Both the position numbers and the translations under genes were made by a program. The notes beneath the pieces were generated by a model. The model had not been told where the DNA came from and made no database searches. It saw nothing but the letters and a program-made list of their open reading frames with translations. From assembly GCA_964539515.1 (NCBI GenBank), contig CAZIJO010000001.1:33172-97171 (forward strand): 64,000 nucleotides of DNA. The letters run 5' to 3'. Of this stretch, positions 4,033 through 21,900 are shown piece by piece (the stretch's first letter is position 1; each line of letters opens with the position of its first letter). This DNA is from an uncultured Bifidobacterium sp. Lineage in GTDB: Bacteria > Verrucomicrobiota > Verrucomicrobiia > Limisphaerales > JADLHS01.

Positions 4033-6678
4033 ATGCCCATTGACCTGACCATTGCGGACGAGGCCGTGGCACGCATAGGCCGCAAGCCCGAAGCGTTGAT
4101 CCCGATCTTGCAAGCGTTGCAGGAGCGTTACGGCTATCTGCCGGAGGCGGCGTTGCGTCGCGTCTGCGAGACAACGCAGATCAAGCCCGCAGCGGTCATG
4201 GGCGTGGCATCGTTCTATGACATGTTCCGGATGCAGCCCACCGGCAAACATGTGGTGCGGGTGTGCCGGGGGACGGCCTGTCACGTGGCCGGCGCGGAGC
4301 GCGTGGAGGACGCGCTGCGGCGGCATCTGCAAATTCCCAATGACGCCGATACCGATCGCGACGGGCAGTTCACCATCGAACAGGTCGCGTGCCTGGGCAC
4401 ATGCACCCTCGCACCGGTGGTACGCATTGGCGAATCCACGATGGGTTATGCCACCGCCGAAAAAGTGCCCGAGCTGATGCGGGATTTTCTCGCGAGCCAG
4501 GCCATGGCAACGACCGTGAAGTCCACCGAAGGCAAGGGCGGCAATGGGGGTGCCGGCATCGCCGAAATCCACGTCGGGCTCGGCTCGTGTTGCATGGCGA
4601 AGGGGAGCGACCGTCTGTTTCATGCCCTGCGCGAGAGCGCGGCGACGGGGGGCGTAAACGTGGTGGTGAAGCGGGTGGGGTGCGTGGGGATGTGCCATCG
4701 GACGCCGATGGTTGAGGTCGCGACGCCGGGGGGCAAAGGTGAGTTTTACGCCGGGCTTTCGCCGGAGCAGGCCCGGGCGTTGGTCCAACGGCATTTCAAA
4801 CCGCGCGGTTTGGTCCAGCGCGCGAGTCGGCTTTGGACGCGCGTTTTGGATGGCTTGTTACTCGACGACACGGGCGAGCAACGCAAGGTGCAGCATTTCT
4901 CGATGAGCAAGCGCGACCCGGCGGTGCGGGCGTTTCTGGACCGGCAGGTCCACATCGCCACGGAACATTTCGGACGGCTGGACCCGTTGGATTTGGACGA
5001 GTATTTGGCGAACGATGGATTTGCCGCGTTGGCGAAATGTTTGGGTAGTGATTTGAACAACCGCCCTCACCCCAACCCTCTCCCCCAAGGGAGGGGGAAT
5101 GGTTCGCCAGCGTTTGAAAAGGCGAAAATCGGAGATGACCCAGGGGTGTTGGAGCGATCCGTAGACGGACGACTGCTGTTCCCTCTCCCTGGGGGAGAGG
5201 GTCAGGGTGAGGGCGAGCGTGGCTCGCAAAGTGAAATTGCTCAGAGCATCCTGCCATCGGCAGTTACGCGGGAAGCCATCATCTCAACGATCGAGAAATC
5301 CGGGTTGCGCGGGCGGGGTGGGGCGGGATTTCCCTCCGGACAAAAATGGCGCGTCGTTGCCCAGCAAGCCGGTGATACAAAATATGTGATCTGCAACGGC
5401 GACGAGGGCGATCCCGGGGCCTTCATGGACCGGATGATACTCGAATCATTTCCCTACCGGGTCATTGAAGGGCTGGCGATTGCGGCGGTGGCGGTCGGAG
5501 CGCGTGAAGGGATTTTCTACATCCGTCACGAGTATCCGCTGGCGGTGAAGCGGGTGCGCGCAGCCATTGCCGAATTGGAGCAACGGGGCTGGTTGGGGGA
5601 AAGACTGCTGGGGGTGGGAGCGTTCCTAACCCCATCCTCTTCCCCATCTGATGGAGAGCGGGTGGCGAAGCCGGGTGAGGGGTTGGCGGCTGGCTACCCG
5701 CTCAAGCTCTCGGTTTTCGAGGGCGCCGGCGCGTTTGTTTGCGGCGAAGAGACGGCGTTGATCGCTTCCATCGAAGGCGAGCGTGGCATGCCGAAGTTGC
5801 GCCCGCCGTTTCCAGCGCAGGAAGGACTCTGGGACAAGCCGACGCTCATCAATAATGTCGAGACGCTGGCCATGGTGCCGTGGATCCTGCGGAACGGGGC
5901 GGAGCAGTTTGCCGCCATCGGTACCGCCAAGAGCAAAGGCACGAAGGTTTTTGCCCTGGCGGGCAAGATCCGCCGCGGCGGCCTCATTGAAGTCCCGATG
6001 GGGACAACGATTCGCGAGATCGTGGAGGAAATTGGTGGCGGCGCGGCGGAGGGGCGGCGGTTCAAGGCGGTCCAGATCGGCGGGCCGAGCGGGGGCTGCG
6101 TCCCGGCGCGGCTCGCGGACACCCCGGTGGATTTTGAATCGTTGCGCGAAGTGGGTGCGATCATGGGCAGCGGCGGACTGGTGGTGCTCGACGACACCAG
6201 CTGCATGGTGGACATCGCGCGGTATTTCCTCCAGTTCACGCAGGATCAATCCTGCGGCAAATGCACGTTCTGTCGCATCGGGACCAAACGGATGCTCGAC
6301 ATCCTCGAGCGCCTTTGCACCGGCAAAGCGACCCGCTCCCACCTCGAAGAACTCGAACGGCTCGCGGCCCAGGTCGGGGCCGGCAGCTTGTGCGGGCTGG
6401 GTAAAACCGCCCCCAATCCGGTGCTGACGACGCTCCGTTATTTCCGCGAAGAGTACGAAGCGCACCTGCAAGGCCGTTGTCCCGCGCGTAAATGCACCGC
6501 GCTGATCCATTACACGATCAACGCCGATTGCACCGGTTGCACCCTCTGCGCGCAGCAGTGTCCGGTGGAAGCGATCCCGATGCTGCCGTACGCCCGGCAC
6601 GTGATTGATGACGCCAAGTGTACCCGATGCGACACATGTCGGCTGGTGTGTCCGCATAATGCCGTGGAGTTGAAATGA
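4033..6678 (+). CDS. NuoE-NuoF fusion flavoprotein (HydC/HydB- or HoxE/HoxF-like NAD(P)H dehydrogenase module) with C-terminal 2x[4Fe-4S] ferredoxin
   Basis: NuoE-type 2Fe-2S (CRGTACHVAG...CLGTCTLAPV). A second thioredoxin-like 2Fe-2S (GSCCMAKG...CVGMCHRTP). NuoF motifs GLRGRGGAGFPSGQKW, ICNGDEGDPGAFMDR, CGKCTFCRIG. Terminal CTGCTLCAQQCP / CTRCDTCRLVCP. The ORF track starts at TTG 4021; ATG 4033 is preferred but not proven. Confidence 0.9.
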   Translation: MPIDLTIADEAVARIGRKPEALIPILQALQERYGYLPEAALRRVCETTQIKPAAVMGVASFYDMFRMQPTGKHVVRVCRGTACHVAGAERVEDALRRHLQIPNDADTDRDGQFTIEQVACLGTCTLAPVVRIGESTMGYATAEKVPELMRDFLASQAMATTVKSTEGKGGNGGAGIAEIHVGLGSCCMAKGSDRLFHALRESAATGGVNVVVKRVGCVGMCHRTPMVEVATPGGKGEFYAGLSPEQARALVQRHFKPRGLVQRASRLWTRVLDGLLLDDTGEQRKVQHFSMSKRDPAVRAFLDRQVHIATEHFGRLDPLDLDEYLANDGFAALAKCLGSDLNNRPHPNPLPQGRGNGSPAFEKAKIGDDPGVLERSVDGRLLFPLPGGEGQGEGERGSQSEIAQSILPSAVTREAIISTIEKSGLRGRGGAGFPSGQKWRVVAQQAGDTKYVICNGDEGDPGAFMDRMILESFPYRVIEGLAIAAVAVGAREGIFYIRHEYPLAVKRVRAAIAELEQRGWLGERLLGVGAFLTPSSSPSDGERVAKPGEGLAAGYPLKLSVFEGAGAFVCGEETALIASIEGERGMPKLRPPFPAQEGLWDKPTLINNVETLAMVPWILRNGAEQFAAIGTAKSKGTKVFALAGKIRRGGLIEVPMGTTIREIVEEIGGGAAEGRRFKAVQIGGPSGGCVPARLADTPVDFESLREVGAIMGSGGLVVLDDTSCMVDIARYFLQFTQDQSCGKCTFCRIGTKRMLDILERLCTGKATRSHLEELERLAAQVGAGSLCGLGKTAPNPVLTTLRYFREEYEAHLQGRCPARKCTALIHYTINADCTGCTLCAQQCPVEAIPMLPYARHVIDDAKCTRCDTCRLVCPHNAVELK
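5063..5214. repeat. REP-doublet/MITE-like palindromic element lying in-frame inside the NuoEF gene
   Basis: Arms are GCCCTCACCCCAACCCTCTCCCCCAAGGGAGGGGG (5063-5097) and CCCTCTCCCTGGGGGAGAGGGTCAGGGTGAGGGC (5181-5214). They are reverse complements at ~31/35 positions. The right arm itself folds as CCCTCTCCC-TGG-GGGAGAGGG. Translated, the element gives PHPNPLPQGRGN...PLPGGEGQGEGE. Confidence 0.8.
5625..5685. repeat. Second short GC-rich palindromic repeat unit in-frame inside the NuoEF gene
   Basis: CCTAACCCC...GGGGTTGG termini pair with one bulge. There is an internal CCATCTGATGG palindrome. The element translates to LTPSSSPSDGERVAKPGEGL and interrupts the conserved segment just upstream of GAGAFVCGEETAL. 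Confidence 0.6.
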
Positions 6679-8264
6679 GCGACCCGTTCACCATCAGCAT
6701 CGATCGCCGGCCGGTTCAAGTCCGACCGGGCGAAAGCGTGTTGACCGCGGCGCGCCGGCTGGCCATTGATATTCCGACCCTCTGCTATCTGGAAAAGTGC
6801 GGGCCGCTCAACACCTGCCAGGTCTGCCTGGTGAAGCTTAACGGCAAGCTGGTGCCGTCCTGCGGGACAAAGGTCGCGCCCGGAATGGTGGTGGAGAGTG
6901 AGACGGAGGAAGTGCACGAGGCGCGGCGCACGGCGTTGGAGCTTTTGTTCAGCGATCATGTGGGCGATTGCCTGTCACCCTGTCACCGGTTGTGCCCCCT
7001 GATGCTGAACATTCCGCAAATGTTGCGGCACATTGAAGCGGAACGATTGGACGACGCGATCGCCACGGTACGGCAGGCTTTGCCGCTGGCAGGCGTGCTG
7101 GGGCGGTTGTGTCACCATCCATGTGAACAGGGCTGTCGGCGGGGCAACTGGGATTCGCCCGCCGCGATCCGCGACATGGAACGCTTTGTCACCGATCAGG
7201 ATCTCAAAAATGCCGGGCCCTACGTGCCGGGGACCAAGCCCGCCTCGGGGAAGACGGTGGTCATCATTGGCGCGGGACCGGCAGGGTTGGCGGCCGCCTA
7301 TTATCTCTCGCGCGAGGGACATGGTGTCACCGTGGTGGATCGTCAGCCGCGCGCCGGAGGCACTTTGCGGGAGGTGAGTGAAAGCCAGCTGCCCGGTTCC
7401 GTTTTGGAAGCGGAACTCGCCCTGCTTGCGCGGCAGGTCGTTGATTTCAAGCTGGGAGTGGAACTTGGCCAGCACGTCACGGTGGAGGGGCTGGCGCGCG
7501 GGTTTGGGGCGGTATTAGTGGCGACGGGAGAGCTGGGGCAGGAAGATGGTACCCGGATGGGCTTGCCGATGGCGGGGAAATTTGTCAAAGCGGATCCCAA
7601 CACCTGCCAGACTTTGATCGAGAAGGTCTTCGCTGCCGGCAGTGTGGTGCGGCCGCAGAAACAACTCGTGAAAGCCATGGCCGAAGGACGGGCGGCGGCG
7701 GAGTGCGTGCACCGGTTTTTGAGCGGCCAGCCCGTGCGGCGACCGGAAAAGCCCTTCTCCAGCATCATGGGCAAGGTGGATCCGGGCGAGCTGAAGGCGT
7801 TTCTCCGCGCGACCCACGCGGGCGGGAGCGTGTCGCCCTGCGACCGTTGTGCCGGGCACACGCGGCAGGAAGCGGCCCTGGAGTCGTCGCGTTGTCTGCA
7901 CTGCGACTGCCGTTCCTCCGGCAATTGCGTGTTGCAGCACTACGCGCAGACGTATGGGGCGAACGCGAGCCGTTTCCGCACGGAGCGCCGGGAGTTTGAC
8001 CAGCAGCTGCAACCGGGCGGCATCATTTTCGAACCGGGCAAATGCATCCTGTGCGGCATCTGCGTGAAGCTCACCGAAATGGCGGCCGAGCCGCTGGGCT
8101 TGACCTTCATCGGGCGCGGCTTTGATGTGAAGCTGAGCGCGCCATTTAGTCAGGCCATCGAGGCAGGGCTGCAGCAGGTGGCGGCGGAGTGTGTGCAGCA
8201 TTGCCCGACGGGCGCGCTGGTTTTCAAGAACGGGAAACCGAATTCCGCCGCCGGGGAAAAATGA
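6675..8264 (+). CDS. Iron-sulfur flavoprotein: NuoG-type N-terminal 2Fe-2S + GltD-like 4Fe-4S/FAD domain + C-terminal 4Fe-4S region
   Basis: ATGA overlap with the NuoEF stop. CYLEKCGPLNTCQVCLV (2Fe-2S). HHPCEQGCRRG (GltD-type cluster). A single dinucleotide fold VVIIGAGPAGLAAAYYL, then VFAAGS...AMAEGRAAA. Terminal CLHCDC..C and CILCGICVKL...CP motifs. Confidence 0.8.
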   Translation: MSDPFTISIDRRPVQVRPGESVLTAARRLAIDIPTLCYLEKCGPLNTCQVCLVKLNGKLVPSCGTKVAPGMVVESETEEVHEARRTALELLFSDHVGDCLSPCHRLCPLMLNIPQMLRHIEAERLDDAIATVRQALPLAGVLGRLCHHPCEQGCRRGNWDSPAAIRDMERFVTDQDLKNAGPYVPGTKPASGKTVVIIGAGPAGLAAAYYLSREGHGVTVVDRQPRAGGTLREVSESQLPGSVLEAELALLARQVVDFKLGVELGQHVTVEGLARGFGAVLVATGELGQEDGTRMGLPMAGKFVKADPNTCQTLIEKVFAAGSVVRPQKQLVKAMAEGRAAAECVHRFLSGQPVRRPEKPFSSIMGKVDPGELKAFLRATHAGGSVSPCDRCAGHTRQEAALESSRCLHCDCRSSGNCVLQHYAQTYGANASRFRTERREFDQQLQPGGIIFEPGKCILCGICVKLTEMAAEPLGLTFIGRGFDVKLSAPFSQAIEAGLQQVAAECVQHCPTGALVFKNGKPNSAAGEK

Positions 8265-9237: not shown

Positions 9238-9466
9238 CCGGACCGGCCGCACCTGCACTCATTTCAATTCGTCCGCCCTATTTCATGAGTTTGCCGCCGT
9301 TCGCCCCAGCGAGGTGACTGAAACACAACGCAAAAAGCCCGCGGATCAATTCGCGTGGCGGGCGGCGTGGAAAGCGCCCGGCGCAGGATTGGTCGCGGCC
9401 CGTGCAAGCCGAGGGTCTCATGGAAAAGAGCTTTCGCGCCTCCCGCAACTCGTATTGAATCCCGCA

Positions 9467-9805
9467 ATGAATCAGACGCATCCACTGACAACCACCACGT
9501 TTGAACTGCCTGGCTACCAGGCGACGAAATCGTATGGCGTCGTGCGCGGCATCGTGGTGCGATCCCGCTCCATTATTGGCAACCTCGGCGCGAGCATTCA
9601 GAGCATCTTCGGCGGAAACATCACGCTCTACACCGAATTATGCGAACGGGCGCGCGAAGATGCGTTCAATCAGATGCTCGCACATGCCGGCAAGCTGGGC
9701 GCGAATGCCGTCCTCGGCGTGCGATACGATGCGACCGAAATTGGCAACGGCATAACGGAGGTGATTTGCTACGGCACGGCGGTGTCGGTGGAGTCGCTGC
9801 GGTGA
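9467..9805 (+). CDS. YbjQ/UPF0145 family protein
   Basis: [92 protein letters not shown] is the characteristic YbjQ pattern. Start is ATG 9467. Confidence 0.8.
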
Positions 9806-9963: not shown

Positions 9964-12723
9964 ATGAAGACCCTGAGCAAGGAGAGTCTATTTGCACGGC
10001 TGCTGGGCCGGCTGGCGTGGGCGGTCATTCACCGGCGGCAGTGGTTTTTTTGGCCGCAGATCATCCTGTTCGGCCTCAGCGTGCTCTACACGGTCAAGTT
10101 TCTGGAGTTTCGCACCAACCGGAATGACCTCGTCGGGAGCGGCAAGAAATACCACCAGAATTTTTTGCAGTTCAAGCAGGAGTTTCCCACCCAGGACGAT
10201 CTGGTGGTGGTGGTGGAGAGCGAAAACGCCGAGAAGAACCGCCAGTTTGTCGAACGAATCGGGGCGAAACTGGAAGCGGAAACCAACCTCTTCATGCACG
10301 TCTTCTACAAGGGCGACCTGAAGATGCTCGGCTCGAAGGCGCTCCTGTTCGTGCCCGAGGCGGACCTCCTCGAGCTGCGGAAAAAGCTGAACGATTACCT
10401 GCCTTTCATCGGTCCTTTCACGCACACGACCAACCTGGTGTCGTTGTTCGACATGATCAACACCCAGTTCCGCACTGCCAAACGGGAGCGGGATGAACGG
10501 ACCGAGTCGCTCATCCGGGCCATCCCCGCCCTGGAGCGCATCGTAACGCAGGCCACCGCGAGTTTGCGGCGCGGCGGCAGTCCCCCCTCACCCGGCGTTT
10601 TTGCCTTGTTTGCCGCCGGCCCGGAAGCCGAGCGGAGCGTGTATATCACCTTTGCCCAGGGCCAGATTTATCTGGTCACCGCGCAGGCGGTGACGGAGGA
10701 AAAGAATAGTGCCGCCGTGCGGCGGCTGCGGCAGTTGGTGCAGGAAACGCAGGCCGAGGTGCCCGGCATCAACGTGGGCTTGACGGGCGAACCGGTGTTG
10801 GTCCATGACGAAATGAAGCAATCGCAAAGTGACACTTCGGTGGCCAGCGTTGTCTCGCTCATCATCTGCGCATTGATCTTCATCTACGGTTACAACGAGA
10901 CCGGCCGGCCGCTCAAAGCCACGGTTTGCCTCATCGTGGGGATCGGTTACACCATGGCCTTTACCACGGCGGTGGTGGGGCATTTGAACATCCTCACGGT
11001 CACCTTCGTTCCCATCCTGATCGGGCTGGCGATTGATTTCGGCGTGCATTTGGTGACGCGTTACGAGGAGGAATTGCATCATGGCAAGAGCGAGGCCGAG
11101 GCGATGACGAAGGCCCTGGTATTTACGGGGCAGGGAATCTTTACCGGGGCGTTTACCACCGCCGGCGCTTTTCTGGCCATGGGCTTTACGGATTTCAAGG
11201 GTATTCAGGAAATGGGGATCATTTGCGGCGGCGGCCTGCTGGTCTGTCTGGTGCCGATGCTGACCTTGCTGCCGGTGCTGCTCTTGCGGGGACGTCAGAA
11301 CGTGCTGGACCACGCCCTGGTCGGCAAAGTGGATCATCGGGCCCGGATCGAGAACCTGTGGCTGCGTCGCCCGGCCCTCGTGATCATCGTGACGTTGGTA
11401 TTATGCGCGGGGTCCGTGTGGCAGATGCGCAAGGTCATTTTCGATTACAACTTGCTCAACATGCAAAGCAAGGGTTTGCCGGCCGTGGATTTCGCCACCA
11501 AGTTGATCGACGCGACCGCGGAGGCCGGCAAGGACGACGGCACGAACGCCGCCGCCCGTTCGGTTTTGTTCGCGGCGGTCGTGACCGATTCCCTCACCCA
11601 GGCGGTGGAATTGGAAAAGCAAATCAAGCAGCTGCCGTCGGTGGCGGGGGTTGATTCCATCGCCAAGTTTCTGACCGAGAACCAGGCCGAGAAACTTCGG
11701 GTGATTGGCGAAATCAAGAAGGACCTGGCGGCGCTGCGGTTTGACGAGGCGGATCGACGTCCGGTGAATGTTCTGGAGTTAAGCCAGAGTCTTTACTCCT
11801 TGAACGGTTATATCGGGCTGGCCCGGGAGGAGGCGCAGAAAGACGATGCCGCGGTGACGGCCCGGCTGACTTCCCTTTATCGGGCGGTGGAAATTTTCCG
11901 CAAGGAAATGTTGCGGGGCGGGGCGGCGGGTCACGCGGCGGTCGCCGACCAGCTGGGAACGTATCAGCGCGCCCTCTTCGATGATTTGCGTTCCACGTTT
12001 GAAGCCCTGCAGCAGCAGGACAACCGGGAGAAGCTGCGCGTGGAGGACCTGCCGCCGGCCTTGCGGGATCGCTTTGTCGGTGTCCATGGCAAGCATTTGC
12101 TCCAGGTCTATCCCAAGGCCAACGTCTGGCAGCGGGCGCCGCAGGAAGAGTTTGTCCGCGAGTTGCGGACGATCGATCCCGATGTCACGGGCACACCGGT
12201 GCAATTGCTCGAATACACGACGCTGCTCAAGCGCAGTTACGAGGAGGCGGCACGCTATTCGCTCGCCGCGATTGCCATTCTGGTGTTCCTTCACTTCCGC
12301 TCCCTGGGTTCCGTCGTGCTGGCGTTGCTGCCCGTGGCGATTGGGTCGCTCTGGCTCGGCGGAATCATGGGCTGGTTCAGCATTCCGTTGAACCCGGCGA
12401 ATATCATGATGCTCCCGCTCATCATCGGCATCGGGGTGACGAACGGCATTCATATCCTGAATCGTTATGCCGAGGAACAGACGCCGAGCATCCTGGCCAA
12501 AAGCACCGGCAAAGCGGTGCTGGTGTCCGGCCTGACAACGATTGCGGGTTTTGGCAGCCTGGCGCTGGCCAAACATCGCGGCATTGAAAGTCTGGGATAT
12601 GTGATGGCCACCGGTGTGGCCACGTGCATGTTCGCCGGATTGACGTTCCTGCCGGCACTCCTGAACTTGATTATGAAAATTCGAAACGAGAAAAAAAACC
12701 AACCCAGTGCCAACAATGCATGA
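9964..12723 (+). CDS. MMPL/RND-superfamily exporter, HpnN-like architecture
   Basis: 919 aa with two 6-TM bundles (around aa 290-440 and 760-905) separated by large soluble loops. This is the typical MMPL/SSD organisation. The HpnN-like label is inferred from architecture only. Confidence 0.7.
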   Translation: MKTLSKESLFARLLGRLAWAVIHRRQWFFWPQIILFGLSVLYTVKFLEFRTNRNDLVGSGKKYHQNFLQFKQEFPTQDDLVVVVESENAEKNRQFVERIGAKLEAETNLFMHVFYKGDLKMLGSKALLFVPEADLLELRKKLNDYLPFIGPFTHTTNLVSLFDMINTQFRTAKRERDERTESLIRAIPALERIVTQATASLRRGGSPPSPGVFALFAAGPEAERSVYITFAQGQIYLVTAQAVTEEKNSAAVRRLRQLVQETQAEVPGINVGLTGEPVLVHDEMKQSQSDTSVASVVSLIICALIFIYGYNETGRPLKATVCLIVGIGYTMAFTTAVVGHLNILTVTFVPILIGLAIDFGVHLVTRYEEELHHGKSEAEAMTKALVFTGQGIFTGAFTTAGAFLAMGFTDFKGIQEMGIICGGGLLVCLVPMLTLLPVLLLRGRQNVLDHALVGKVDHRARIENLWLRRPALVIIVTLVLCAGSVWQMRKVIFDYNLLNMQSKGLPAVDFATKLIDATAEAGKDDGTNAAARSVLFAAVVTDSLTQAVELEKQIKQLPSVAGVDSIAKFLTENQAEKLRVIGEIKKDLAALRFDEADRRPVNVLELSQSLYSLNGYIGLAREEAQKDDAAVTARLTSLYRAVEIFRKEMLRGGAAGHAAVADQLGTYQRALFDDLRSTFEALQQQDNREKLRVEDLPPALRDRFVGVHGKHLLQVYPKANVWQRAPQEEFVRELRTIDPDVTGTPVQLLEYTTLLKRSYEEAARYSLAAIAILVFLHFRSLGSVVLALLPVAIGSLWLGGIMGWFSIPLNPANIMMLPLIIGIGVTNGIHILNRYAEEQTPSILAKSTGKAVLVSGLTTIAGFGSLALAKHRGIESLGYVMATGVATCMFAGLTFLPALLNLIMKIRNEKKNQPSANNA

Positions 12724-12802
12724 TCGGCCCTGGGTTGGGAGGAACCGAGGTAAAAACCTCACGCCGGGGAAAAATCCTCAAGCGCGAGCTCAATTTTAAA
12801 TA

Positions 12803-14431
12803 ATGCAACCGCAATGTCAATTCCCTTGCTTTAAGGGTGGTGCCGGCGGGCGGCTTCGTCCGAGCAAGCTATTGCCTGCCAATTGGAAACACCACAGCTG
12901 GTTGCTGGCTGCCTGGTTGGTGGGCGGCTGCTCCATTTTTGTTCACGGCAGCCAGGAGGCGGAGGTGGACGCCGGGTTCCTATTTTCCCGTCATCAGCTC
13001 ACCTTGGAGGCGGGCGACCGCACTGAGGCGGCGGGTCCGTTTTATTACGAGCAAGAAAGTGAAGCGGAAGAAGTTCTGGCGTTCCCGCCATTTTTTTCGC
13101 ACTCGGTCCGTCCGGACCTCGACGCCGAGGAGTACGATGTCCTGTATCCGTTGCTGAGTTTTGACCGCTTCGGCCGGGAGTATCGCTGGCACCTTTTCCA
13201 GTTGTTTAACTTTAGCGGCGGCCAGGATCAGTCCGAGGTGATGCGCCGCCAGTTCAACCTGTTCCCGGTTTACATGCAGCAACGTTCGGCCGACACAAAC
13301 CAGAACTACACGGCCATTTTTCCGATTTACGGTCACCTGAAGAAACGGATTTTTCGCAGCGAGATCGATTTCGTGCTCTGGCCGTTTTACGTGAAAACCG
13401 TCCGGCGCCCTTCCGCCAGCCCGGTGCCGCTGGGGCCGCAGGAAAATCTGCGGCGGCAATTTCTCGACGCCCGCCGGGGCGACTTCACCACCTACAACTA
13501 CGTGTACCCCTTCTATCATCTGCGTTACGGGGACGGGATGAAAGGCTGGCAGCTCTGGCCGTTCGTAGGCCACGAGCATAAGGAGATCACGACCAAGACG
13601 AATGTGTGGGGCGACCTGGAGACAACGCCGGGTTACGACAAACGCTTTGTCCTCTGGCCGTTTTATTTCAATCAGCAACGCGAAACCGGCACAACCAACG
13701 CCGAGGACCACGTGGGGGTGGTGCCGTTTTACAGTCGCCTGCGTTCCCCCATGCGCGACTCGACGAGTTACCTGACCCCGATTGGCCTGACGATCACGGA
13801 TGACCGCACGCGCAAGTACCACGAGGTGGGTGCCCCCTGGCCCTTCATCGTCTTCGCCCGGGGCGAGGGCAAAACCGCCGATCGGGTCTGGCCCTTCTTC
13901 AGTCTGGTTCACACGGACACACCGGAAAGCCGCCTGGACAGCAATTTCTATCTTTGGCCGATTTACAAATACAAGGGCATTCACTCGCCCCCGCTTGACT
14001 ATGGCCGCACGCGCATCCTGCTGTTCCTGGCATCGCACACGATCGCGAAGAGTTCCGAGACGGGCAATTTCCGGACCCGGACCGAGGTATGGCCGTTCTT
14101 CACGCACCAGCGCGATTACAACGGCAATGCGCGCCTGCAAATCCTCGCCCCGCTCGAGCCTTTGCTGCCGGCCAGCAAGAGCATCGAGCGCAATTACTCG
14201 CCGCTCTGGTCGGTGTGGCGCGCGGAAAAAAATCCCCGGACCGGCATGGCCAGCGAGTCGCTGCTCTGGAATCTGTACCGGCGCGACACCGCGCCCACGA
14301 GCAAAAAAAGCTCGCTCCTGTTCGGGCTTATCCAGTATGAATCCAGCGCCGAAACCAAACGCTGGCGGTTATTTTACCTCCCGCAGAAGAAATCACAGAG
14401 TTCTCCCGCTCATGTTTCAGAACATCGGTGA
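12803..14431 (+). CDS. Uncharacterised repeat lipoprotein ('WPFY' repeats)
   Basis: Signal-like WLLAAWLVGGC (possible lipobox). At least 13 copies of hydrophobic-(W/Y/F)-P-(F/I/L)-(Y/F): FPPFF, LYPLL, LFPVY, IFPIY, LWPFY, VYPFY, LWPFV, LWPFY, VVPFY, PWPFI, VWPFF, LWPIY, VWPFF. The 3' end overlaps mlaE by 20 nt. Confidence 0.75.
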   Translation: MQPQCQFPCFKGGAGGRLRPSKLLPANWKHHSWLLAAWLVGGCSIFVHGSQEAEVDAGFLFSRHQLTLEAGDRTEAAGPFYYEQESEAEEVLAFPPFFSHSVRPDLDAEEYDVLYPLLSFDRFGREYRWHLFQLFNFSGGQDQSEVMRRQFNLFPVYMQQRSADTNQNYTAIFPIYGHLKKRIFRSEIDFVLWPFYVKTVRRPSASPVPLGPQENLRRQFLDARRGDFTTYNYVYPFYHLRYGDGMKGWQLWPFVGHEHKEITTKTNVWGDLETTPGYDKRFVLWPFYFNQQRETGTTNAEDHVGVVPFYSRLRSPMRDSTSYLTPIGLTITDDRTRKYHEVGAPWPFIVFARGEGKTADRVWPFFSLVHTDTPESRLDSNFYLWPIYKYKGIHSPPLDYGRTRILLFLASHTIAKSSETGNFRTRTEVWPFFTHQRDYNGNARLQILAPLEPLLPASKSIERNYSPLWSVWRAEKNPRTGMASESLLWNLYRRDTAPTSKKSSLLFGLIQYESSAETKRWRLFYLPQKKSQSSPAHVSEHR

Positions 14432-15152
14432 AATGGTGCTCCTTTTTTGGAGGACGTTGTGCGCGCTGCCGCGGATCTGGTCGCAGCGCGCCAAGGTTAT
14501 GGACCAGTTCTACGAGATTGGCAATGCCAGTCTGCTCATGATCTGTGTGCTCTCGTTCTTCTTGGGCGGCGTGATTGCGCTGCAAACGGGTCCGCTCCTG
14601 GTCGAGCGGGGCTTGCACAATGCCGTGGGCGGGCTCGTCGGCATCGCCATGGCCAAGGAACTGGCGCCGATCATGATGGCCATTCTGATCTCCGGCCGCG
14701 TCGGTTCGGCGATGGCCGCCGAAATCGGCTCCATGCGCGTTTATCAGGAAATCGATGCGCTCCGGACCATGAACATTGATCCGGTCAACTACCTCGTCCT
14801 GCCCCGCCTCGCCGCGATCGCGATTGCCCTCCCCATGCTCGTCATCTTTGCCATCCTGGTCGGCTGGCTTGGCGGCGCCGTCGTCTGTACGGTCACCGGC
14901 CAGATCGATATTCCCATCCAGTCGTTCTTCACCACCATGAAGGACGTCGTGGAGGTCAAGCACGTTGCCAACGGCGTGGTCAAGAGCTTCTGCTTCGCGT
15001 GGATCGTGGGCATTGTTTCCTGTCACCAAGGCCTCATCACGCGCGGCGGTCCCCGTGGTATCGGGCGCTCCGTCACCAAAGCCGTGGTCAACTCGATCGT
15101 GTTAATCGTTATCTTCAACTTCGTCCTCACGCGCATCCTGCTCGACTGGTGA
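14412..15152 (+). CDS. mlaE: MlaE-type ABC permease (phospholipid/MCE transport)
   Basis: ATG 14412 (MFQNIGEMVLLFWRTL...). Conserved MlaE-like segments QFYEIGNASLLMICVLSFFLGGVIALQ, MAKELAPIMMAILISGRVGSAMAAEIGSMRVYQEIDALRTM, VKSFCFAWIVGIVSCHQG. Confidence 0.9.
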   Translation: MFQNIGEMVLLFWRTLCALPRIWSQRAKVMDQFYEIGNASLLMICVLSFFLGGVIALQTGPLLVERGLHNAVGGLVGIAMAKELAPIMMAILISGRVGSAMAAEIGSMRVYQEIDALRTMNIDPVNYLVLPRLAAIAIALPMLVIFAILVGWLGGAVVCTVTGQIDIPIQSFFTTMKDVVEVKHVANGVVKSFCFAWIVGIVSCHQGLITRGGPRGIGRSVTKAVVNSIVLIVIFNFVLTRILLDW

Positions 15153-15916
15153 ACGTTCCCCCCAACAATAATCACGGCGTCAGCGTTCAAATCCGCGGAT
15201 TGCGACGCAGTTTCGGCCAGCAGCCGGTGCTCAAGGGGATTGACCTCGCCGTCCGCGCCGGCGAAATCTTCGTGCTGATGGGGCCGAGCGGGAGCGGCAA
15301 GAGCGTATTGCTCCGCCATGTCATCGGCCTCGAAGTGCCCGATGCCGGCGAGATTCTCGTCGGGGGCGAGTCCATCCAGGCGGCCGGCGTCATGGACCGC
15401 TTCCGCATGGCAATGGTTTTTCAGTCCGGCGCCCTGCTCAATTCGCTCACCGTCGGCGAGAATGTGGGTCTTTATCTGAGTGAACATCAGCTCCGCCCGC
15501 CGGAGGAGATCGCCCGGGTCGTTTCCGAAAAACTGGAGGTCGTCGGCTTGAAGGGCACCGAGGAAAAATATCCCAGTGAGCTCTCCGGCGGCATGAAGAA
15601 GCGCGTCGCCATGGCCCGCGCGCTCGTCATCGAGCCGCAGTTGATTCTCTATGATGAACCGACCAGCGAATTGGACCCGATTTCCGCCGTCGTCATCGGG
15701 GAGGAAATTCTCGCGCTGAACCAGCGCATCGGCGTCACCTCGCTCGTCGTCTCGCATGACCGGGACCTCGCCTTCGGCATCGCCCATCGCATCGCCGTGA
15801 TTAACGAAGGGGAAATCCTCGCCGTCGGTTCGCCAGACGAGGTCCGGCGCAGTCATCATCCGATTATCCGTGAATTCCTCCATGCCGACTTTCGACGACC
15901 GGAACCCAACCTATGA
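15149..15916 (+). CDS. mlaF: MlaF-type ABC ATPase
   Basis: GTG 15149 overlaps the mlaE stop (GTGA). Walker A GPSGSGKS, signature LSGGMKKRVAMARAL, Walker B LILYDEPTSELD, H-loop VVSHD. Confidence 0.9.
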   Translation: MNVPPNNNHGVSVQIRGLRRSFGQQPVLKGIDLAVRAGEIFVLMGPSGSGKSVLLRHVIGLEVPDAGEILVGGESIQAAGVMDRFRMAMVFQSGALLNSLTVGENVGLYLSEHQLRPPEEIARVVSEKLEVVGLKGTEEKYPSELSGGMKKRVAMARALVIEPQLILYDEPTSELDPISAVVIGEEILALNQRIGVTSLVVSHDRDLAFGIAHRIAVINEGEILAVGSPDEVRRSHHPIIREFLHADFRRPEPNL

Positions 15917-16884
15917 AAAACACCCTTGAAACCCGCCTCGGCCTGTTCGTGTCCTTCATCGTGCTGGCCGCCTTCATCATCATGTACATTTTGGGCGGCT
16001 TTGAAAAATTCCAGCGCGGCCTCCAGGTCCATGCCTTGTTCAAAACGGCCCAGGAATTGAAACTGGGCGACCGCGTGAAAATGGCCGGCGTCGAGGTCGG
16101 CAAAGTGGATAAGATCGAACTCGCCGACGGCAAAGTGCGCGTCACCATGAGCCTCCGCGCCAACACCCCGGTCAAGACCGACACGACCGCCACGATCAAG
16201 TTCGCCGGTTTAATGGGGCAGAGTTTCGTCGCGCTCGATTTCGGCACCCCCGCCGGCCGGCCCGCCACCCCGGACAGCTTTCTGCAAACGGTCGAGCAAC
16301 CCGACCTGAGCGTGATCATGCAGAAGCTGGACAATGTGGCCACCGGGGTGGAGAACCTCACCCGCAGTTTCACCGGTGACAAAATCGAGAACCTCTTTGG
16401 CCCTCTGACGGATTTTATCAAACAGAATACCGCTCCGCTCACGGCCACCATCGCCAACCTTCGGGCCATGTCCGGCCAGATCGCCGAGGGCAAGGGCACC
16501 TTTGGCAAACTCATTTACGACGATGCGCTCTACAACTCCGCCCTGACCACGGTGACCAGCCTGCAATCCACGACGGAGGAGATCAAACTTGCCCTGGGGG
16601 ATGCCCGCAAGATCATCGATGGCGTCAATGCCGGAGAGGGCTCGCTCGGGAAACTGGTGAAGGATGAGAAGCTCTACGCCGAAACCACGGCCTCGATGAC
16701 GAACCTCAAGGAAATTCTCCAAAAGATGAACAGCGGCCAGGGCACGGTCGGCAAACTCATCAACGACCAGGAATTCTACAAGAACGCCAAGCTCACCTTG
16801 CAGAAAGTGGACAAGGCGACGGAGGGTTTGGAAGACCAGGGCCCGTTGAGTGTCCTGGGCATCCTGGTGAACAACTTGTTCTGA
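15913..16884 (+). CDS. mlaD: MlaD/MCE-domain substrate-binding protein with extended helical C-terminus
   Basis: ATGA overlap with mlaF. N-terminal TM (LGLFVSFIVLAAFIIMYIL). MCE fold region (LKLGDRVKMAGVEVGKVDKIEL...VRVTM). Three C-terminal G-x-G-(T/S)-x-GKL-x-x-D motifs. Confidence 0.9.
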   Translation: MKNTLETRLGLFVSFIVLAAFIIMYILGGFEKFQRGLQVHALFKTAQELKLGDRVKMAGVEVGKVDKIELADGKVRVTMSLRANTPVKTDTTATIKFAGLMGQSFVALDFGTPAGRPATPDSFLQTVEQPDLSVIMQKLDNVATGVENLTRSFTGDKIENLFGPLTDFIKQNTAPLTATIANLRAMSGQIAEGKGTFGKLIYDDALYNSALTTVTSLQSTTEEIKLALGDARKIIDGVNAGEGSLGKLVKDEKLYAETTASMTNLKEILQKMNSGQGTVGKLINDQEFYKNAKLTLQKVDKATEGLEDQGPLSVLGILVNNLF

Positions 16885-16953: not shown

Positions 16954-17403
16954 CTACTCCTGCGCCGGCTTTTCCGCCCCCGGACCTCCGGGACCGCCAC
17001 GTCGGCCGGGTCGCCCGGGGCCGCCCGGGCCGCCTTCTTTCCTGAGTTTCTCCCACTTCGCATATTGTTCCGGCGTGAGAATCTCTTTCATCTTCTTTTG
17101 CATTTCCTCCCGCCCGGCTTTCATCTTTTCACGGCGTTCTTCCGGGGTGGCATCGCGCAAGCCGCGCATGGCTTCGGCTTGTTCCTTCATCACCGTCGTT
17201 ACCTTCGTCTTCTGTTCGTCGGTGAGCTTGAGTTCCTCGGCCATCTTGGCGATGCGTTCCTTGACCATCTCCCCGCGTTGCCCCTGGGGTGGCCGGCCTT
17301 CGGGCGGACCTGGCTTGTCTTCCGCCCGCCCCATGGGGCTCAACGCGATCAACGCCCCGGCGGCCAAGGCCGTCATTATTCCAACTTTTTGCATTTTCAT
17401 CAT
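16954..17403 (-). CDS. Periplasmic LTXXQ-motif protein (Spy/CpxP-like) with Gly/Pro-rich tail
   Basis: Start at MMKMQKVGIMTALAAGALIALSPMGRA (signal). LKLTDEQKTKV and LTPEQYAKW motifs. C-terminal GGPGGPGRPGRRGGPGGPG. Confidence 0.7.
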   Translation of the reverse strand: MMKMQKVGIMTALAAGALIALSPMGRAEDKPGPPEGRPPQGQRGEMVKERIAKMAEELKLTDEQKTKVTTVMKEQAEAMRGLRDATPEERREKMKAGREEMQKKMKEILTPEQYAKWEKLRKEGGPGGPGRPGRRGGPGGPGAEKPAQE

Positions 17404-17558
17404 CTGCCTCTTTCTTTCTTTTTTTGCCGCTCCTTCATGGCGCGGCGGCTGTAACGTGAGACGCCGCCGGGGCAAATTGGTTACAGGCCATCCGGCCCCA
17501 AAAGTTAAAAATCCACGCGTGACTTTGGCGGGGGAAACTGAAACATTCCGCCCGCATT

Positions 17559-18176
17559 ATGAAACTATCACTGCTGCTTTGCACCTTGGGCCTGGGGCTG
17601 GGACTGGTCGCCGCCTCCGCCGACGAGCCGAAGACCACCAAACCTGAAACCAAACCGGATAACAAAACTGTGAACACCAACGAAGTCGCTGTCCTCAAAA
17701 CCTCCGAAGGCGAAATGGTCCTCGAATTCTGGCCGGACGTCGCCCCGGGCCATGTCGAAAATTTCAAGAAGCTTGCCAAGCAGGGCTTTTACGATGGCAC
17801 CTGCTTTCACCGCGTGATCAAGGGCTTCATGATCCAGGGCGGCGACCCGCTTACCAAGGATGAGGCCAACCAGAGCCGCTGGGGTACGGGGGATCCCGGT
17901 TACAAGATCAAGGCTGAGTTCAATGACAAAGCCCATGTGCGCGGCGTGCTTTCCGCAGCGCGCTCTCAGGACCCGAATTCCGCCGGCTCGCAATTCTTCA
18001 TCTGCCATGGCGATCCGCGTTTTCTGGACCGGCAATACACCGCGTACGGCAAGTTGATCAAAGGCGATGACGTGCTGGAAAAGATCGCCACCACGCCCAC
18101 CGCGCCGGGCGACCGCCCCCTCAAGCGGATGAATCTGGAGAGCGTCAAGATCGTACCGCGCGATTCGGTTAAGTAA
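17559..18176 (+). CDS. Secreted cyclophilin-type peptidyl-prolyl cis-trans isomerase
   Basis: Signal MKLSLLLCTLGLGLGLVAASA. Cyclophilin motifs FHRVIKGFMIQGGDP, SAGSQFFIC, YTAYGKLIKG. Confidence 0.92.
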   Translation: MKLSLLLCTLGLGLGLVAASADEPKTTKPETKPDNKTVNTNEVAVLKTSEGEMVLEFWPDVAPGHVENFKKLAKQGFYDGTCFHRVIKGFMIQGGDPLTKDEANQSRWGTGDPGYKIKAEFNDKAHVRGVLSAARSQDPNSAGSQFFICHGDPRFLDRQYTAYGKLIKGDDVLEKIATTPTAPGDRPLKRMNLESVKIVPRDSVK

Positions 18177-18986: not shown

Positions 18987-21900
18987 TTGATCTCCGTGAA
19001 ACTCATCCGGTTCATCACGTTCGGACTCGCCTGGGGCCAGACTCTTGGTTTTGGTGCAGAGTCCTCGAGACCCGCGGCCTCTATCTCCGAACGCGGCGAC
19101 CATTATCGGGTCTGGCAGCGGGTCACGGTGGAGCGGGATGAGGAAGGCAGACCCTATTCGCTGACCAACTCCGCCTACACCGAACTGGAAACGGGGATGC
19201 ACGTAAAACAACCCGATGGCACCTGGGCGGAAGCCAGCGACGAAATTGAGATCATTCATTCAGGTGGAATCGCACGAAAAACCCGGCACCGGGTGCATTT
19301 TGCCCCAAACTGCAACTCACCGGTGGCGATTGATTTGCTGAGCGCTGACGGGAGACGTCTGCGTTCACGAATCTTGGGGCTCGGTTTTTTTGACCGTAGC
19401 TCCCGGAAAAGTGTCTTGATAGCGGAGATCAAGGACTCCGAAGGTCGCCTGCTGATGGAGAACCGGAACGAAGTGGTTTATTACGATGCCTTCACCGATC
19501 TCAAAGCGGATGTGCGCTACAGAAACAGCAAGGCCGGGCTGGAACAAGACATCATCCTTCGCGAGAATCCGCCTTCCCCCGCCGAGTACGAGTTGAATCC
19601 GGCGACGACCGTCCTTGAAGTCCTGACCGAGTTTATCAGTCCGCCGGTGCCGAAGAAGCGGGTGCGGATGGTTTCCGGCGACGCCGATGAATTCTTGGAT
19701 TTCGGTGATCTCAAGATGGGAAACGGGCGGGTATTTCTTTTGGGCAAGACCGGGGGCGAAATTCCGGTAACGAAGCAGTGGGGCAATCTGGACCGACGGA
19801 CTTTCCTGATTGAGCAAATTCCTTACAAATCCATCGAGCCGGAACTGAAGTCCTTGCCGCGGAAGACGGCTGCGCGAAGGATTTCCCCGGATGGCGTGCT
19901 TCACCGGGTTTCGGCCCGGCGACTTTTGCCCGAGGTCCAACCCACAAAGCAAGTCTCGGGGTCCCTGCTGCTGGCTAGCGCACCGTTGAGCGGGCCAGGA
20001 GTCGTGTTGGATTACATCATCGCGAGCAGCGATGAAAATTACACTTTCCGCGGGGACACGACTCATTACGTCAACGGCCCCGTCCATCTCAGTGGGACCA
20101 ACACAACCATTGAGGGCGGGGCCGTAATCAAGTTTGCCCGGTCGGCTTCCGCCAGGATTGACATCACTGGTCGCATCAATTGCCAGACGGGAGCGTATCG
20201 GCCGGCAGTGTTCACCGGCGAGGATGATAACACGGTCGGGGAGACCATTGCCGGCAGCACGGGGAGTCCAACCAACCACTACGGGAATGGCTTGACCGTC
20301 ATCACGCCGGGCAACGCGCTCCACGATCTCCGTTTTCTTTACGCTGGCAGCGCGGTCAATTTGGGGTTCACGGCCGGGCTGATTCAACTGGCCAATGTGC
20401 AGTTCGTAAGATGTCAGCACCCGCTCGATTCCAGCGGACAGGACGCGAACACCATCGCGATTGAGAACAGCCTTTTTTATTCCAGTGTTCATGTGGTTCA
20501 TGGTGGACAATCCTTGACGGTGCGGGGCCTGCAGCTGACGGCCAATCACTGTTCGAGTCTTGTCGATCCGGAGTTTTTCGCCGGGGCCGGGCAGCTCTAT
20601 CTGACTAATTCCCTGATTGTGGCCGCGACCAACGGTTGGGGCCAGTCTGATGAGATGCTCGGTTCCGTGACCACCGATAGCACGGTGTTGATTACAAATT
20701 GTCCCGCGGGGGTCTTTCAAACCGTCGGGGCGGCCAGCCATTACCTAGCGGACCAGACTTACCGCAACGCGGGCACCACGAATATCCCTGCCGCGCTGGT
20801 GGAAGCTTTGAAAAGCCGGACCACGTGTCCGCCCCTCTTGCTCACCACCAATTTCACCGCCAACACGATCCTTGCCCCGCAGGCGCTCCGCGACGCGGAC
20901 CTACCGGATTTGGGGTATCATTACGATCCCCTGGATTACGTGATGAGCGGACGGACGGTGTCCGCGAATCTGACCTTGACCAACGGCGTGGCGGTGGGCA
21001 CGTACGGCCCTTCGTCTTCGTTTGGACTGGGGATGATCTCCGGGAAACTGGTGTCGGAAGGTGGGCCCACCCAATTGAACTGGATCGCCCGCTACAATGT
21101 CGTTCAGGAGCAAAGCACGACCAACTGGTCGGCGGGCAGCGTTGCCCCTTCGGTCAAACTCGGGGCGCTGACCCGGTTTGAATTCACGGCGTGGTCGCTC
21201 TTGGGGAACAATGGCAATCACGTTTACGCTTTGAAACCGGGGAGTGGCTCGTTCGGTTTCCGGAACTGTCAATTTGGCGGGGGCGGATTTTATTTTTATG
21301 GTGACCGCGACGGTGGACTGACCAACTGCCTGTGGGAGCGGGTTCGTTTTAACCTCGGGAATTGGAAGAATCAGCCGAACCACGATCTTTACAACAACTT
21401 GTTCCGGGGTGGTTCAGTGCAGGTCGCCAACTATGATGGCGGGATATCCACGATCCGGGACAATCTGTTCGACGAAACTAGCATCGACCAGGGTGGCACT
21501 CTGGTCCACAGCCACAATGCCTACGTCATGGGCTCGAGTCGTCTGACCCCGCCCAATTCCAGCGACGTGGTGCTATCGGGCGCGCCCACTTACCAGACCA
21601 GTTTTTTGGGCAATCATTATTATCCAACCAACGGAGCGTCGATGAACCTGTTGCTGAACGCTGGCAGCCGTAAGGCCGGCGACGCCGGGCTTTTTCACTA
21701 CACCACCATGTCAAATCAGGCGAAGGAAACCAACTCGACGGTGGACATTGGCTTTCACTACGTGGCAACCGATGGGCTGACCAGTCGGCCGGTTGACACC
21801 GACGGGGACGGGTTGCCCGATTATCTCGAAGATCGGAACGGCAATGGAAGTTACAACTCCGGGGACATTGCCAACTGGAACGCGGCCGATACGGACAGCG

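Follow-up and report, generated by a model that had tools for sequence, protein, structure and literature searches.

The stretch of DNA analysed here (the window, 64,000 nucleotides) carries on its forward strand a gene of an unnamed family, called gene X in the following (12803..14431, +), which was delimited from its open reading frame and translation and from homologue searches. The reading frame is uninterrupted and encodes an exported beta-hairpin-repeat protein of 542 aa; its GC content at third codon positions, 0.75 in a window of 61% GC, fits a genuine coding sequence. Directly downstream lie mlaE, encoding the permease of an MCE-type ABC transporter (14412..15152, +; Pfam PF02405, E = 1e-71), mlaF, encoding the ABC ATPase (15149..15916, +; Pfam PF00005), and mlaD, encoding a long protein of 323 aa (15913..16884, +; Pfam PF02470). 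The genes overlap at each junction: gene X and mlaE, whose overlap the original prediction had mentioned, by 20 nt, with the mlaE ATG at 14412; mlaE and mlaF by 4 nt, the GTG start of mlaF overlapping the mlaE stop; and mlaF and mlaD by 4 nt, in an ATGA. Upstream of X is a gene for an HpnN-like RND/MMPL transporter (9964..12723, +; Pfam MMPL), whose TIGR03480 (HpnN) score of 565 bits is under the 752-bit cut-off. A conserved element upstream of gene X gave no match in Rfam. Envelope-folding genes (LTXXQ, cyclophilin) are also found near X.

Protein X contains all 13 x-[W/Y/F]-P-[F/I/L]-[Y/F] pentapeptides that had been claimed for it, at residues 94-98, 114-118, 153-157, 172-176, 192-196, 234-238, 251-255, 284-288, 306-310, 345-349, 362-366, 384-388 and 429-433. 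Gaps between motifs are 17-45 residues long, and the pattern [WYFVP]P[FILV][YFVIL] occurs 13 times against 0.78 +/- 0.86 expected by chance (5000 shuffles, maximum 6). The N-terminal WLLAAWLVGGC (residues 33-43) and the C-terminal stretch LLFGLIQYESSAETKRWRLFYLP (residues 505-527) were likewise found in the translation.

The leader of X (12803..12949, +), delimited by hydrophobicity and alignment, begins with a conserved stretch of the MxxQxQC type, followed by a variable linker and a hydrophobic signal-peptide core at residues ~33-47, the top 12-residue hydrophobic window beginning at residue 34. Proteins of this family are exported; an N-terminal hydrophobic segment is present in 260 of 291 full-length homologues (89%) and a later TM-like segment in one of the 291. 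From the AxA-like sites of orthologues in the alignment, cleavage by signal peptidase I is likely to take place after VHG49. The mature proteins of the family are basic, with a median pI of 9.2, and mature X has a GRAVY of -0.63. The lipobox-like N-terminus originally proposed corresponds to LVGGC with Cys43, and the ends of signal peptides were searched for lipoboxes with the model [LVI][ASTVI][GAS]C. Cys43 is missing even from orthologues that are 79-88% identical and from most of 49 close homologues, and the leaders of most homologues are ordinary signal peptides of the signal-peptidase-I type, so that a conserved lipoprotein was ruled out. A lipobox does occur in 14 of 116 distant homologues, mostly in a single Desulfobacteria-type clade where it is clear (LILVSGCATSF); this clade would be compatible with X working at a membrane surface. 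The lipid anchor is missing in most homologues, so that nothing in these proteins themselves would tie them to the outer membrane, a point against the adaptor reading given below.

The X family has at least 2,700 members, distributed in Verrucomicrobiota, Thermodesulfobacteriota/Geobacteraceae and Dadabacteria, and including the cultured strains Horticoccus luteus and Geobacter sp. AOG2. The statement that it belongs to no recognised family holds: Pfam returned no family for X at E <= 1, a search of 89 proteins of the family at E <= 0.1 yielded two isolated stray matches and nothing else, NCBIfam gave nothing relevant, PDB sequence and profile searches retrieved no family, and a description of the family was not found in literature searches. 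Among 411 aligned homologues, proline is conserved in at least 98% at 15 positions and in 91% at a sixteenth, and the consensus turn reads L-[W/F/Y]-P-[L/F/I]-[Y/F]. Conservation throughout the family is limited almost entirely to P, G, W, Y and L, and on this basis we propose that the all-beta protein X is a non-enzymatic scaffold.

The repeat domain spans residues 57-527 (12971..14383, +) and, from AlphaFold2, mean-field DCA and the conserved turns, consists of ~22 beta-hairpins, that is 44 strands. In AlphaFold2 model 2, built on a diverse alignment (pLDDT 93.3, pTM 0.82), the strands are 4-8 residues long (mean ~6) and form a single continuous antiparallel meander. Covariation, which is independent of AlphaFold2, backs every adjacent strand pair, the z values summing to 12.7 for strands next to each other and to 4.0 for the background; the effective number of sequences (Neff 264) is enough for adjacent pairs and too weak for long-range contacts, and a small number of long-range "parallel" signals probably arise from repeats aligned out of register. 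At this Neff no covariation signal was seen between the first and the last strand. The agreement of two AlphaFold2 models with independent covariation bears out the repetitive beta-hairpin protein that had been predicted, with two corrections. The aromatic-proline motif, which was thought to be followed by a polar, turn-rich segment, in the models forms the tight hairpin turns, and these turns are aligned along one edge of the meander. The count of at least 13 repeats is right for the strict motif, whereas the hairpins themselves number ~22, 13 of which carry it in X. When segments of X were compared with each other by HHalign, they matched only over ~13 columns around the W-P-F turn, so that no longer repeat unit can be defined.

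One face of the sheet is strongly polar and charged and the other mildly hydrophobic over long stretches; mean hydrophobicity is about -0.55 on both, neither face is strongly hydrophobic, and Arg, Glu, Lys and His are abundant in the strands. Foldseek searches with two models, a check suggested earlier, gave no global analogue in the PDB, only local beta-meander or propeller-like matches with TM-scores of at most 0.21. The top-probability local match is the MORN array of junctophilin-2 (9uo9; probability 0.99, TMq 0.21, rmsd 8.9 A), and OspA is also among the best. A YD/RHS repeat shell found no support in Pfam RHS_repeat or in Foldseek (teneurin TMq <=0.18), and the lipid-bridge folds (LptA/OstA jellyroll, AsmA/TamB/YhdP beta-taco) gave neither a Pfam nor a structural match. 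The repeat domain is followed by a tail of low pLDDT, considered disordered (residues 528-542; 14384..14431, +). Its conserved ending HV(P/S)EHR mirrors the MFQNIGE of MlaE in another frame, because the last 20 nt of gene X overlap the mlaE start; HVPEHR was for this reason rejected as a sorting signal. In homologues whose gene does not overlap mlaE, tails vary. Tail length after the last strand is 2-28 residues.

The MlaD encoded in the window has a TM helix, an MCE domain and ~200 residues with GxGTxGKLxxDxxLY repeats, and its C-terminus is hydrophobic (...GPLSVLGILVNNLF-COOH). The MlaD proteins linked to X all belong to the long, barrel-less "helical needle" type, and orthologues carry precomputed PF28544 (Helical_needle) matches, from which the GxGTxGKLxxDxxLY region is predicted to be helical. 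An end strand with an invariant ...LF-COOH is shared by nine aligned MlaD proteins from three phyla. By analogy with characterised MCE proteins, MlaD linked to X would be expected to form a hexamer.

The link with Mla anticipated from the gene overlap extends well beyond the window. X is immediately followed by mlaE in 135 of the 137 loci that are informative. Among Limisphaerales-type loci this holds for 81 of 83 (81/82 informative, as one exception has no downstream DNA), and among distant loci with >2.6 kb of DNA downstream of X for 54 of 55, where the orders are X>E>D (27 loci), X>E>F>D (21) and X>E (6). The adjacency is also found in Horticoccus luteus, in Geobacter sp. AOG2 and in Thermodesulfobacteriota, and is thus kept across at least three phyla although the wider neighbourhood is completely reshuffled. 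The most conserved pairing of X is with mlaE, not with mlaD. In Geobacter sp. AOG2 the X-mlaE pair stands without mlaD or mlaF within 8 kb, in related loci without them within 5 kb, and in locus L092 it is flanked by unrelated genes. Most Limisphaerales-type loci contain the HpnN-like gene; seven others (L012, L013, L016, L027, L032, L037, L040) lack it, as do nearly all distant loci, so that an obligate link of X with this RND transporter was rejected.

Because the family sits directly before mlaE in at least three phyla, X is probably a component of lipid transport. Our main reading, to which we assign a probability of about one half, is that X is a new accessory protein of the periplasm, a fourth subunit in an MlaE(F)D lipid transporter of the bridge type, and probably the adaptor at its outer-membrane end. 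MlaE and MlaF would constitute the permease and the ATPase in the inner membrane, and an MlaD hexamer would provide an MCE ring, a helical needle of ~200 residues and a hydrophobic C-terminal strand, with no barrel of its own. X would be a rigid meander sheet of ~22 tandem hairpins, with the conserved Trp/Phe/Tyr-Pro turns forming a ridge on one edge, one strongly charged face and a basic mature protein, and would be a periplasmic protein acting at that end of the MlaD needle which faces the outer membrane. Lipids would be exchanged between the outer membrane and the tunnel of MlaD, powered by ATP hydrolysis by MlaF, and X would be a functional analogue of PqiC/MpcA, MlaA or TGD4. We infer that X associates physically with the transporter, and its outer-membrane-end location and contact with lipid are parts of the same proposal. 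More tentatively, X may be the component at the outer-membrane end that lets the barrel-less needle-type MlaD transporters of Verrucomicrobiota, Desulfobacterota and relatives bridge the envelope; this extended reading includes an undescribed fold, the ~22-hairpin W-P-F "edge" array without a global PDB analogue, which would serve either as a collar or cap around the tip of MlaD or as a ribbon of ~200 A running along the needle between the membranes.

The same linkage data can be read differently. That mlaE is the most conserved partner of X would be explained at least equally well by a role at the permease of the inner membrane, and X could be a periplasmic partner of MlaE, acting as an assembly factor, as a gate or regulator, or as a substrate-loading platform by the MCE ring. 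The invariance of the X-mlaE pair, the 27 loci with X>E>D without mlaF and the 6 with X>E alone, the isolated pairs of Geobacter sp. AOG2 and its relatives and of L092, and the fact that the tightest translational coupling of X (20 nt overlap) is with mlaE are all in favour of this position; gene order and coupling, however, are poorly informative on the place of a subunit in the envelope. In solved MlaFEDB structures the MlaD ring covers the periplasmic face of MlaE, which leaves little room there for a 55-kDa partner, and the Ala after the Cys in the lipidated clade (CATS) would favour the outer membrane by the Lol rule of E. coli, a rule that may not hold in the phyla of that clade. We consider an inner-membrane position rather unlikely. 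It is also unlikely that X is a soluble lipid carrier or track, either a large shuttle resembling MlaC or an extended ribbon of ~200 A by the MlaD needle, with acyl chains on the mildly hydrophobic face or on the aromatic edge; this corresponds to the "periplasm-spanning lipid conduit" suggested originally. The two-faced sheet is consistent with such a track, as are its length if extended (44 strands x ~4.8 A, roughly 200 A), the extended single-layer hairpin arrays among the best local matches (junctophilin MORN, OspA) and covariation, which has no evidence of the sheet closing on itself. Strands of 4-8 residues would nevertheless be too short for a U-shaped groove like that of the known lipid bridges LptA and AsmA-like proteins, Foldseek gave no match to such bridge folds, the hydrophobic face is weakly hydrophobic, and a tunnel is already supplied by the long MlaD.

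An integral outer-membrane beta-barrel into which the MlaD needle plugs, a bacterial counterpart of TGD4 or LptD, is very improbable. TGD4, a beta-rich protein of roughly 50 kDa and thus of similar size to X, is the outer-envelope partner of chloroplast TGD1/2/3, a lipid importer homologous to MlaE/MlaD/MlaF. X resembles it in being beta-rich (all-beta, with ~44 strands) and in having its gene next to those of an MlaE/F/D set, much as TGD4 cooperates with TGD1/2/3, and porins, VDAC and LptD appear among the weak Foldseek matches. X was compared with TGD4 on the basis of the latter's description as a membrane barrel resembling LptD, and X fails the barrel tests. Crossing the outer membrane takes strands of ~9-10 residues, whereas those of X have 4-8 (mean ~6), are rich in charged residues and His and display no strongly hydrophobic face. 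The GRAVY of -0.63 and the pI of about 9 speak against a barrel, as do the existence of a lipoprotein clade, the last strand (RWRLFYLP), which is followed by a variable Pro-rich tail without a terminal aromatic residue, the lack of covariation between first and last strands, and barrel matches in Foldseek with probability <=0.35 and TM-score <=0.14. The outer-membrane barrel considered at the outset was accordingly discarded, and with it a BAM-dependent one. It is improbable, too, that X merely shares the mla operon and has a function unrelated to lipid transport, such as peptidoglycan or polysaccharide binding, adhesion or envelope stress. Choline-binding repeats, MORN and other hairpin-repeat arrays have diverse ligands, a basic pI suits the binding of anionic polymers, and the LTXXQ and cyclophilin genes lie close by; yet an adjacency kept in at least three phyla with overlapping frames, despite a reshuffled wider neighbourhood, is hard to explain unless X shares the function of the mla genes.

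For the periplasmic adaptor that we favour, the best functional analogy would be offered by PqiC, a small protein of the E. coli PqiABC system, and by MpcA of Brucella: like X, each is an additional exported protein, neither ATPase nor permease, whose gene shares an operon with that of a helical-needle MCE protein. The Brucella MpcEFDA system consists of an MlaE/F pair, a needle MCE protein and an operon-encoded outer-membrane cap, the four of which co-purify, so that its operon resembles that of X also in the presence of the MlaE/MlaF pair (PMC12436622). The differences are nonetheless considerable, since PqiC forms an octameric ring (PMC12436622) and X has ~480 residues of hairpin repeats, PqiC and MpcA are outer-membrane lipoproteins and X usually is not, and the gene for X is the first of its operon, not the last. 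By Pfam there is no sequence relationship (E <= 1 for the query, E <= 0.1 for 89 members), and the models of PqiC/ABC_trans_aux, MlaA and MlaC gave no match to X at E <= 1. MlaA is an alpha-helical lipoprotein and MlaC a small alpha/beta shuttle. MlaA-OmpC/F and MlaC are the outer-membrane and periplasmic parts that complete MlaFED, which is the role proposed for X; X differs from both in being all-beta, in having no Pfam match to either and in its link to a needle-type MlaD. MORN arrays (junctophilin, TbMORN1) share with X a hairpin repeat of ~22-23 residues, a long antiparallel sheet and conserved aromatics, and junctophilins tether two membranes; MORN proteins are, however, eukaryotic and cytosolic, whereas X is bacterial and periplasmic, and X has no Pfam MORN (PF02493) match and an L-W-P-F-Y turn in place of YxGxW...GxG.

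The distribution of MlaA and MlaC is largely restricted to Proteobacteria (PMC10665443). The long MlaD of Veillonella carries a fused C-terminal outer-membrane beta-barrel of ten strands, and the long MlaD of the PVC group has no barrel, for which "as yet unidentified proteins" have been suggested in a phylogenomic study (Grasekamp et al. 2023, PMC10665443); X is not described in that work. The MlaEFD system of Veillonella is comparable with that of X, being putatively minimal, without MlaA and MlaC, with a long helical MlaD proposed as an envelope bridge and with beta structure proposed at the outer-membrane end. The two differ in that the Veillonella barrel is fused to MlaD, whereas here MlaD has one C-terminal strand and the beta protein X is separate, polar and not a barrel.

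The mechanism of phospholipid traffic between the two membranes of diderm bacteria is not yet settled, and outside Proteobacteria the Mla system appears without its outer-membrane (MlaA) and periplasmic (MlaC) parts. The X family adds a confidently predicted repeat architecture without a solved structural analogue and merits definition as a Pfam or InterPro family, and direct experiments are feasible, since X is present in the cultured and sequenced Horticoccus luteus and Geobacter sp. AOG2. Its thousands of sequences come from at least three phyla; it is a concrete and widespread candidate for the partner of the PVC-group MlaD, and X is probably a missing component of an envelope-spanning lipid transport machine.

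The strongest evidence on the hairpin-repeat protein X comes from its gene context. X is encoded by an open reading frame of 542 aa at 12803..14431 (+), whose GC content at the third codon position (0.75) is that of the adjoining genes. It is translationally coupled to the permease gene mlaE: the overlap claimed in the original prediction is real, the mlaE ATG lying at 14412, 20 nt ahead of the X stop codon. The ABC ATPase gene mlaF (GTG at 15149) and the MCE protein gene mlaD (15913-16884, +, starting with ATG) follow, each overlapping the gene before it by 4 nt. The ending HV(P/S)EHR of X is conserved because the same DNA encodes the MFQNIGE start of MlaE.

The proteins of the window were compared by tblastn with 83 loci of close relatives, three from the contigs of two homologues and 80 from species-representative genomes. 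mlaE is found directly 3' of X in 81 of them; of the other two, one has no DNA past X and one (locus L058) genuinely lacks mlaE. Among the 55 loci of distant relatives with enough DNA downstream of X, the order is X-mlaE-mlaD in 27, X-mlaE-mlaF-mlaD in 21 and X-mlaE only in six, while X stands alone in one. At one locus, L097, a DUF7149 and YhcG-nuclease gene pair (6420-7879 of that locus) lies between X and mlaE, as if a mobile element had inserted there; a comparable gap, about 1.3 kb wide, is present at L099. The wider neighbourhood is wholly different from lineage to lineage, and thus the adjacency of X and mlaE is not inherited synteny.

Upstream of X lies an HpnN-like RND/MMPL transporter gene (9964..12723, +; TIGR03480, 565 bits, under the cut-off), usually preceded by a YbjQ-family gene (9464-9805). 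The RND gene is common in Limisphaerales-type X loci; several of these lack it, as do nearly all distant ones. It is a frequent neighbour outside the core. Directly 3' of mlaD are genes for an LTXXQ-family (Spy/CpxP-like) periplasmic protein (16954-17475, -) and a secreted cyclophilin (17559-18176, +), which recur at several related loci.

A strongly conserved non-coding element (12700-12770, +) is located at and just past the RND stop codon (12721-12723). It is composed of a hairpin (ACCCAGUG...CACUGGGU), an invariant 13-mer, GGAGGAACCGAGG (12738-12750, +), and a GAGGU-AAAA-ACCUC mini-hairpin. Of 172 sequences totalling 1.83 Mb, 63 contain the 13-mer, once each and on the + strand only, directly after the HpnN-like RND gene in every case checked, and it is missing wherever that gene is missing; at L062 it stands behind the RND gene with X 6.5 kb away. 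A 7-bp stem predicted by RNAalifold has compensatory changes at three pairs, covariation being weak overall, and there is no Rfam match. The element could be a 3'-UTR, processing or regulatory element.

The original prediction recognised no named family, and X indeed belongs to none: it has no Pfam and no relevant NCBIfam match, no Pfam match is found in any of 89 diverse members (two stray single hits aside), all named members are annotated as 'hypothetical protein', and no literature describing the family was found. Neither single-sequence nor profile searches detect relatives in the PDB. The family is nevertheless large, with at least 2,700 clusters (90% identity) at E <= 1e-3 among the candidates examined, 1,574 matching clusters at 50% identity in an exhaustive HMM search, and presence in 401 species-representative genomes. 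Close homologues are Verrucomicrobiota of the Limisphaerales/Pedosphaera type; others, with 22-39% identity, carry the source names Opitutaceae, Akkermansiaceae, Thermodesulfobacteriota, Desulfobacteria, Geobacteraceae and Candidatus Dadabacteria. Several GTDB representative MAGs with the X operon (L005, L011, L017, L022 and others) have TPA titles reading 'uncultured Bifidobacterium sp.' or 'Bifidobacteriaceae', and one is titled 'Akkermansia muciniphila'; with their Verrucomicrobia-type operon, these records look like mislabelled submissions. Two tandem pairs of PSCyt1/PSCyt2/PSD1 (DUF1549/DUF1553) and DUF1501 genes at 43910-53189 (+) fit the inferred taxonomy, such genes being typical of the Planctomycetes and Verrucomicrobia. 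No Pfam family matches two large ORFs of the window, 18987-22010 (1007 aa) and 58974-61253 (759 aa).

All 13 pentapeptides listed as x-W-P-F-Y-type repeats are present in X, and the degenerate motif occurs 13 times against 0.78 +/- 0.86 expected (5000 shuffles of the same protein; maximum 6). A first AlphaFold2 model was moderate (pLDDT 80.5, pTM 0.66; 49 close homologues); a second, covering residues 53-527 with 89 diverse homologues, was very confident at pLDDT 93.3 and pTM 0.82, with all five models at or above 92.4. The latter contains 44 beta-strands, each 4-8 residues long; the loops between them have 1-6 residues, and there are two longer insertions (residues 202-227 and 448-471). In both models the L-[W/F/Y]-P-[L/F/I]-[Y/F] motif forms a tight hairpin turn, and all these turns lie on one sheet edge, since successive motifs are an even number of strands apart. 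The proline is at least 98% conserved at 15 motif-type turns in 411 homologues, and 91% at a sixteenth. Residues invariant throughout the family are P, G, W, Y and L and almost nothing else, which points to a scaffold and not an enzyme. HHalign between segments of X finds that only the turn motif of about 13 residues recurs.

Independently of these models, mean-field DCA (407 sequences, Neff 264) gave covariation for every pair of adjacent strands (mean summed z 12.7 +/- 4.7, versus 4.0 +/- 1.8 for strands six or more apart). Pairing is unbroken across both long insertions, and a small excursion hairpin is bridged by pairing of strand 255-260 with strand 277-283; no signal joins the first strand to the last, in an analysis of low power for long-range contacts. 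X is thus a continuous antiparallel meander, and a closed barrel is without support. The repetitive beta-hairpin architecture foreseen from the sequence is therefore borne out by models and covariation alike.

The leaders show export: an N-terminal hydrophobic segment is present in 260 of 291 full-length homologues and a later TM-like segment in one. The lipobox noted originally is not supported: LVGGC fits a loose lipobox pattern, but its cysteine is absent from orthologues with 79-88% identity. Most homologues have an AxA-like site at the leader end; the lipobox pattern occurs in 14 of 116 distant homologues, mainly in one clade, where it is a textbook LILVSGC-ATSF. Judging from these signals, the family is exported, usually with processing by signal peptidase I, and lipidated in one lineage. 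The mature proteins have a median pI of 9.2, and that of the window a GRAVY of -0.63. The DNA around the start codon of X is conserved as TAAATGA...AAGTCAAT (12795-12830, +, and equivalent sites in L001-L033). The conserved peptide that it encodes, M-S-x-x-Q-S-Q-C, and a variable linker (10-40 residues) stand ahead of the signal peptide, which makes the pre-signal segment unusually long and conserved.

Every X-linked MlaD is about 320-350 aa long with a precomputed match to PF28544 'Helical_needle'. Nine aligned proteins from three phyla have in common a TM helix and an MCE domain, a helical region with three or four tandem GxGTxGKLxxDxxLY repeats, and an invariant C-terminus, ...D-x-G-P-L-x-x-L-G-...-L-F-COOH. 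This hydrophobic end strand resembles the beta-signal of outer-membrane proteins.

The MCE/Mla ABC lipid transporter is known; the new component is X, which shares no homology with MlaA, MlaC, PqiC/MpcA or the Veillonella MlaD barrel and has neither a family definition nor a global structural analogue in the PDB. The ancestral Mla core is MlaEFD, MlaA and MlaC are mostly proteobacterial, the long type makes up 85% of MlaD proteins, and MlaD of the PVC group has no barrel (Grasekamp et al., PMC10665443). The stable trans-envelope complex of Brucella Mpc is made up of an MlaE/F pair, a needle-type MCE protein and an outer-membrane cap encoded in the operon (PMC12436622). By analogy, X may be the fourth subunit of an MlaE(F)D bridge, an exported rigid hairpin array that would sit at the outer-membrane end of the MlaD needle; we give this statement as a whole a probability of about 0.5. 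The data show the fold class, the export, the conservation and the translationally coupled linkage of X, whereas we infer physical interaction, location and transport direction. Some form of joint function of X with MlaE(F)D is very probable; an unrelated function merely co-resident in the operon is a slim prospect.

The invariant pair is X-mlaE, which would suit a partner of MlaE at the inner-membrane end, an unlikely arrangement in our judgement. The lipid conduit originally imagined, as a soluble carrier or a periplasm-long track, is compatible with an open array that could reach about 200 A; no groove fold was found, and we consider this reading unlikely. An integral outer-membrane barrel like TGD4 or LptD is very improbable because of four independent features: the strands are too short (4-8 residues); Arg, Glu, Lys and His abound in them; of the two sheet faces, propagated through the covariation registers, one is strongly polar and one no more than mildly hydrophobic; and beyond the RWRLFYLP strand the chain runs out in a variable Pro-rich tail that lacks a terminal aromatic residue. 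The barrel alternative of the original prediction is accordingly disfavoured.

Grasekamp et al. (PMC10665443) raised the possibility of unidentified partner proteins. X, as a putative fourth subunit of the bridge, matters because it is a testable candidate for this explicitly open question, and its occurrence in cultured strains, Horticoccus luteus (Opitutaceae) and Geobacter sp. AOG2 (Geobacteraceae), adds to its importance.
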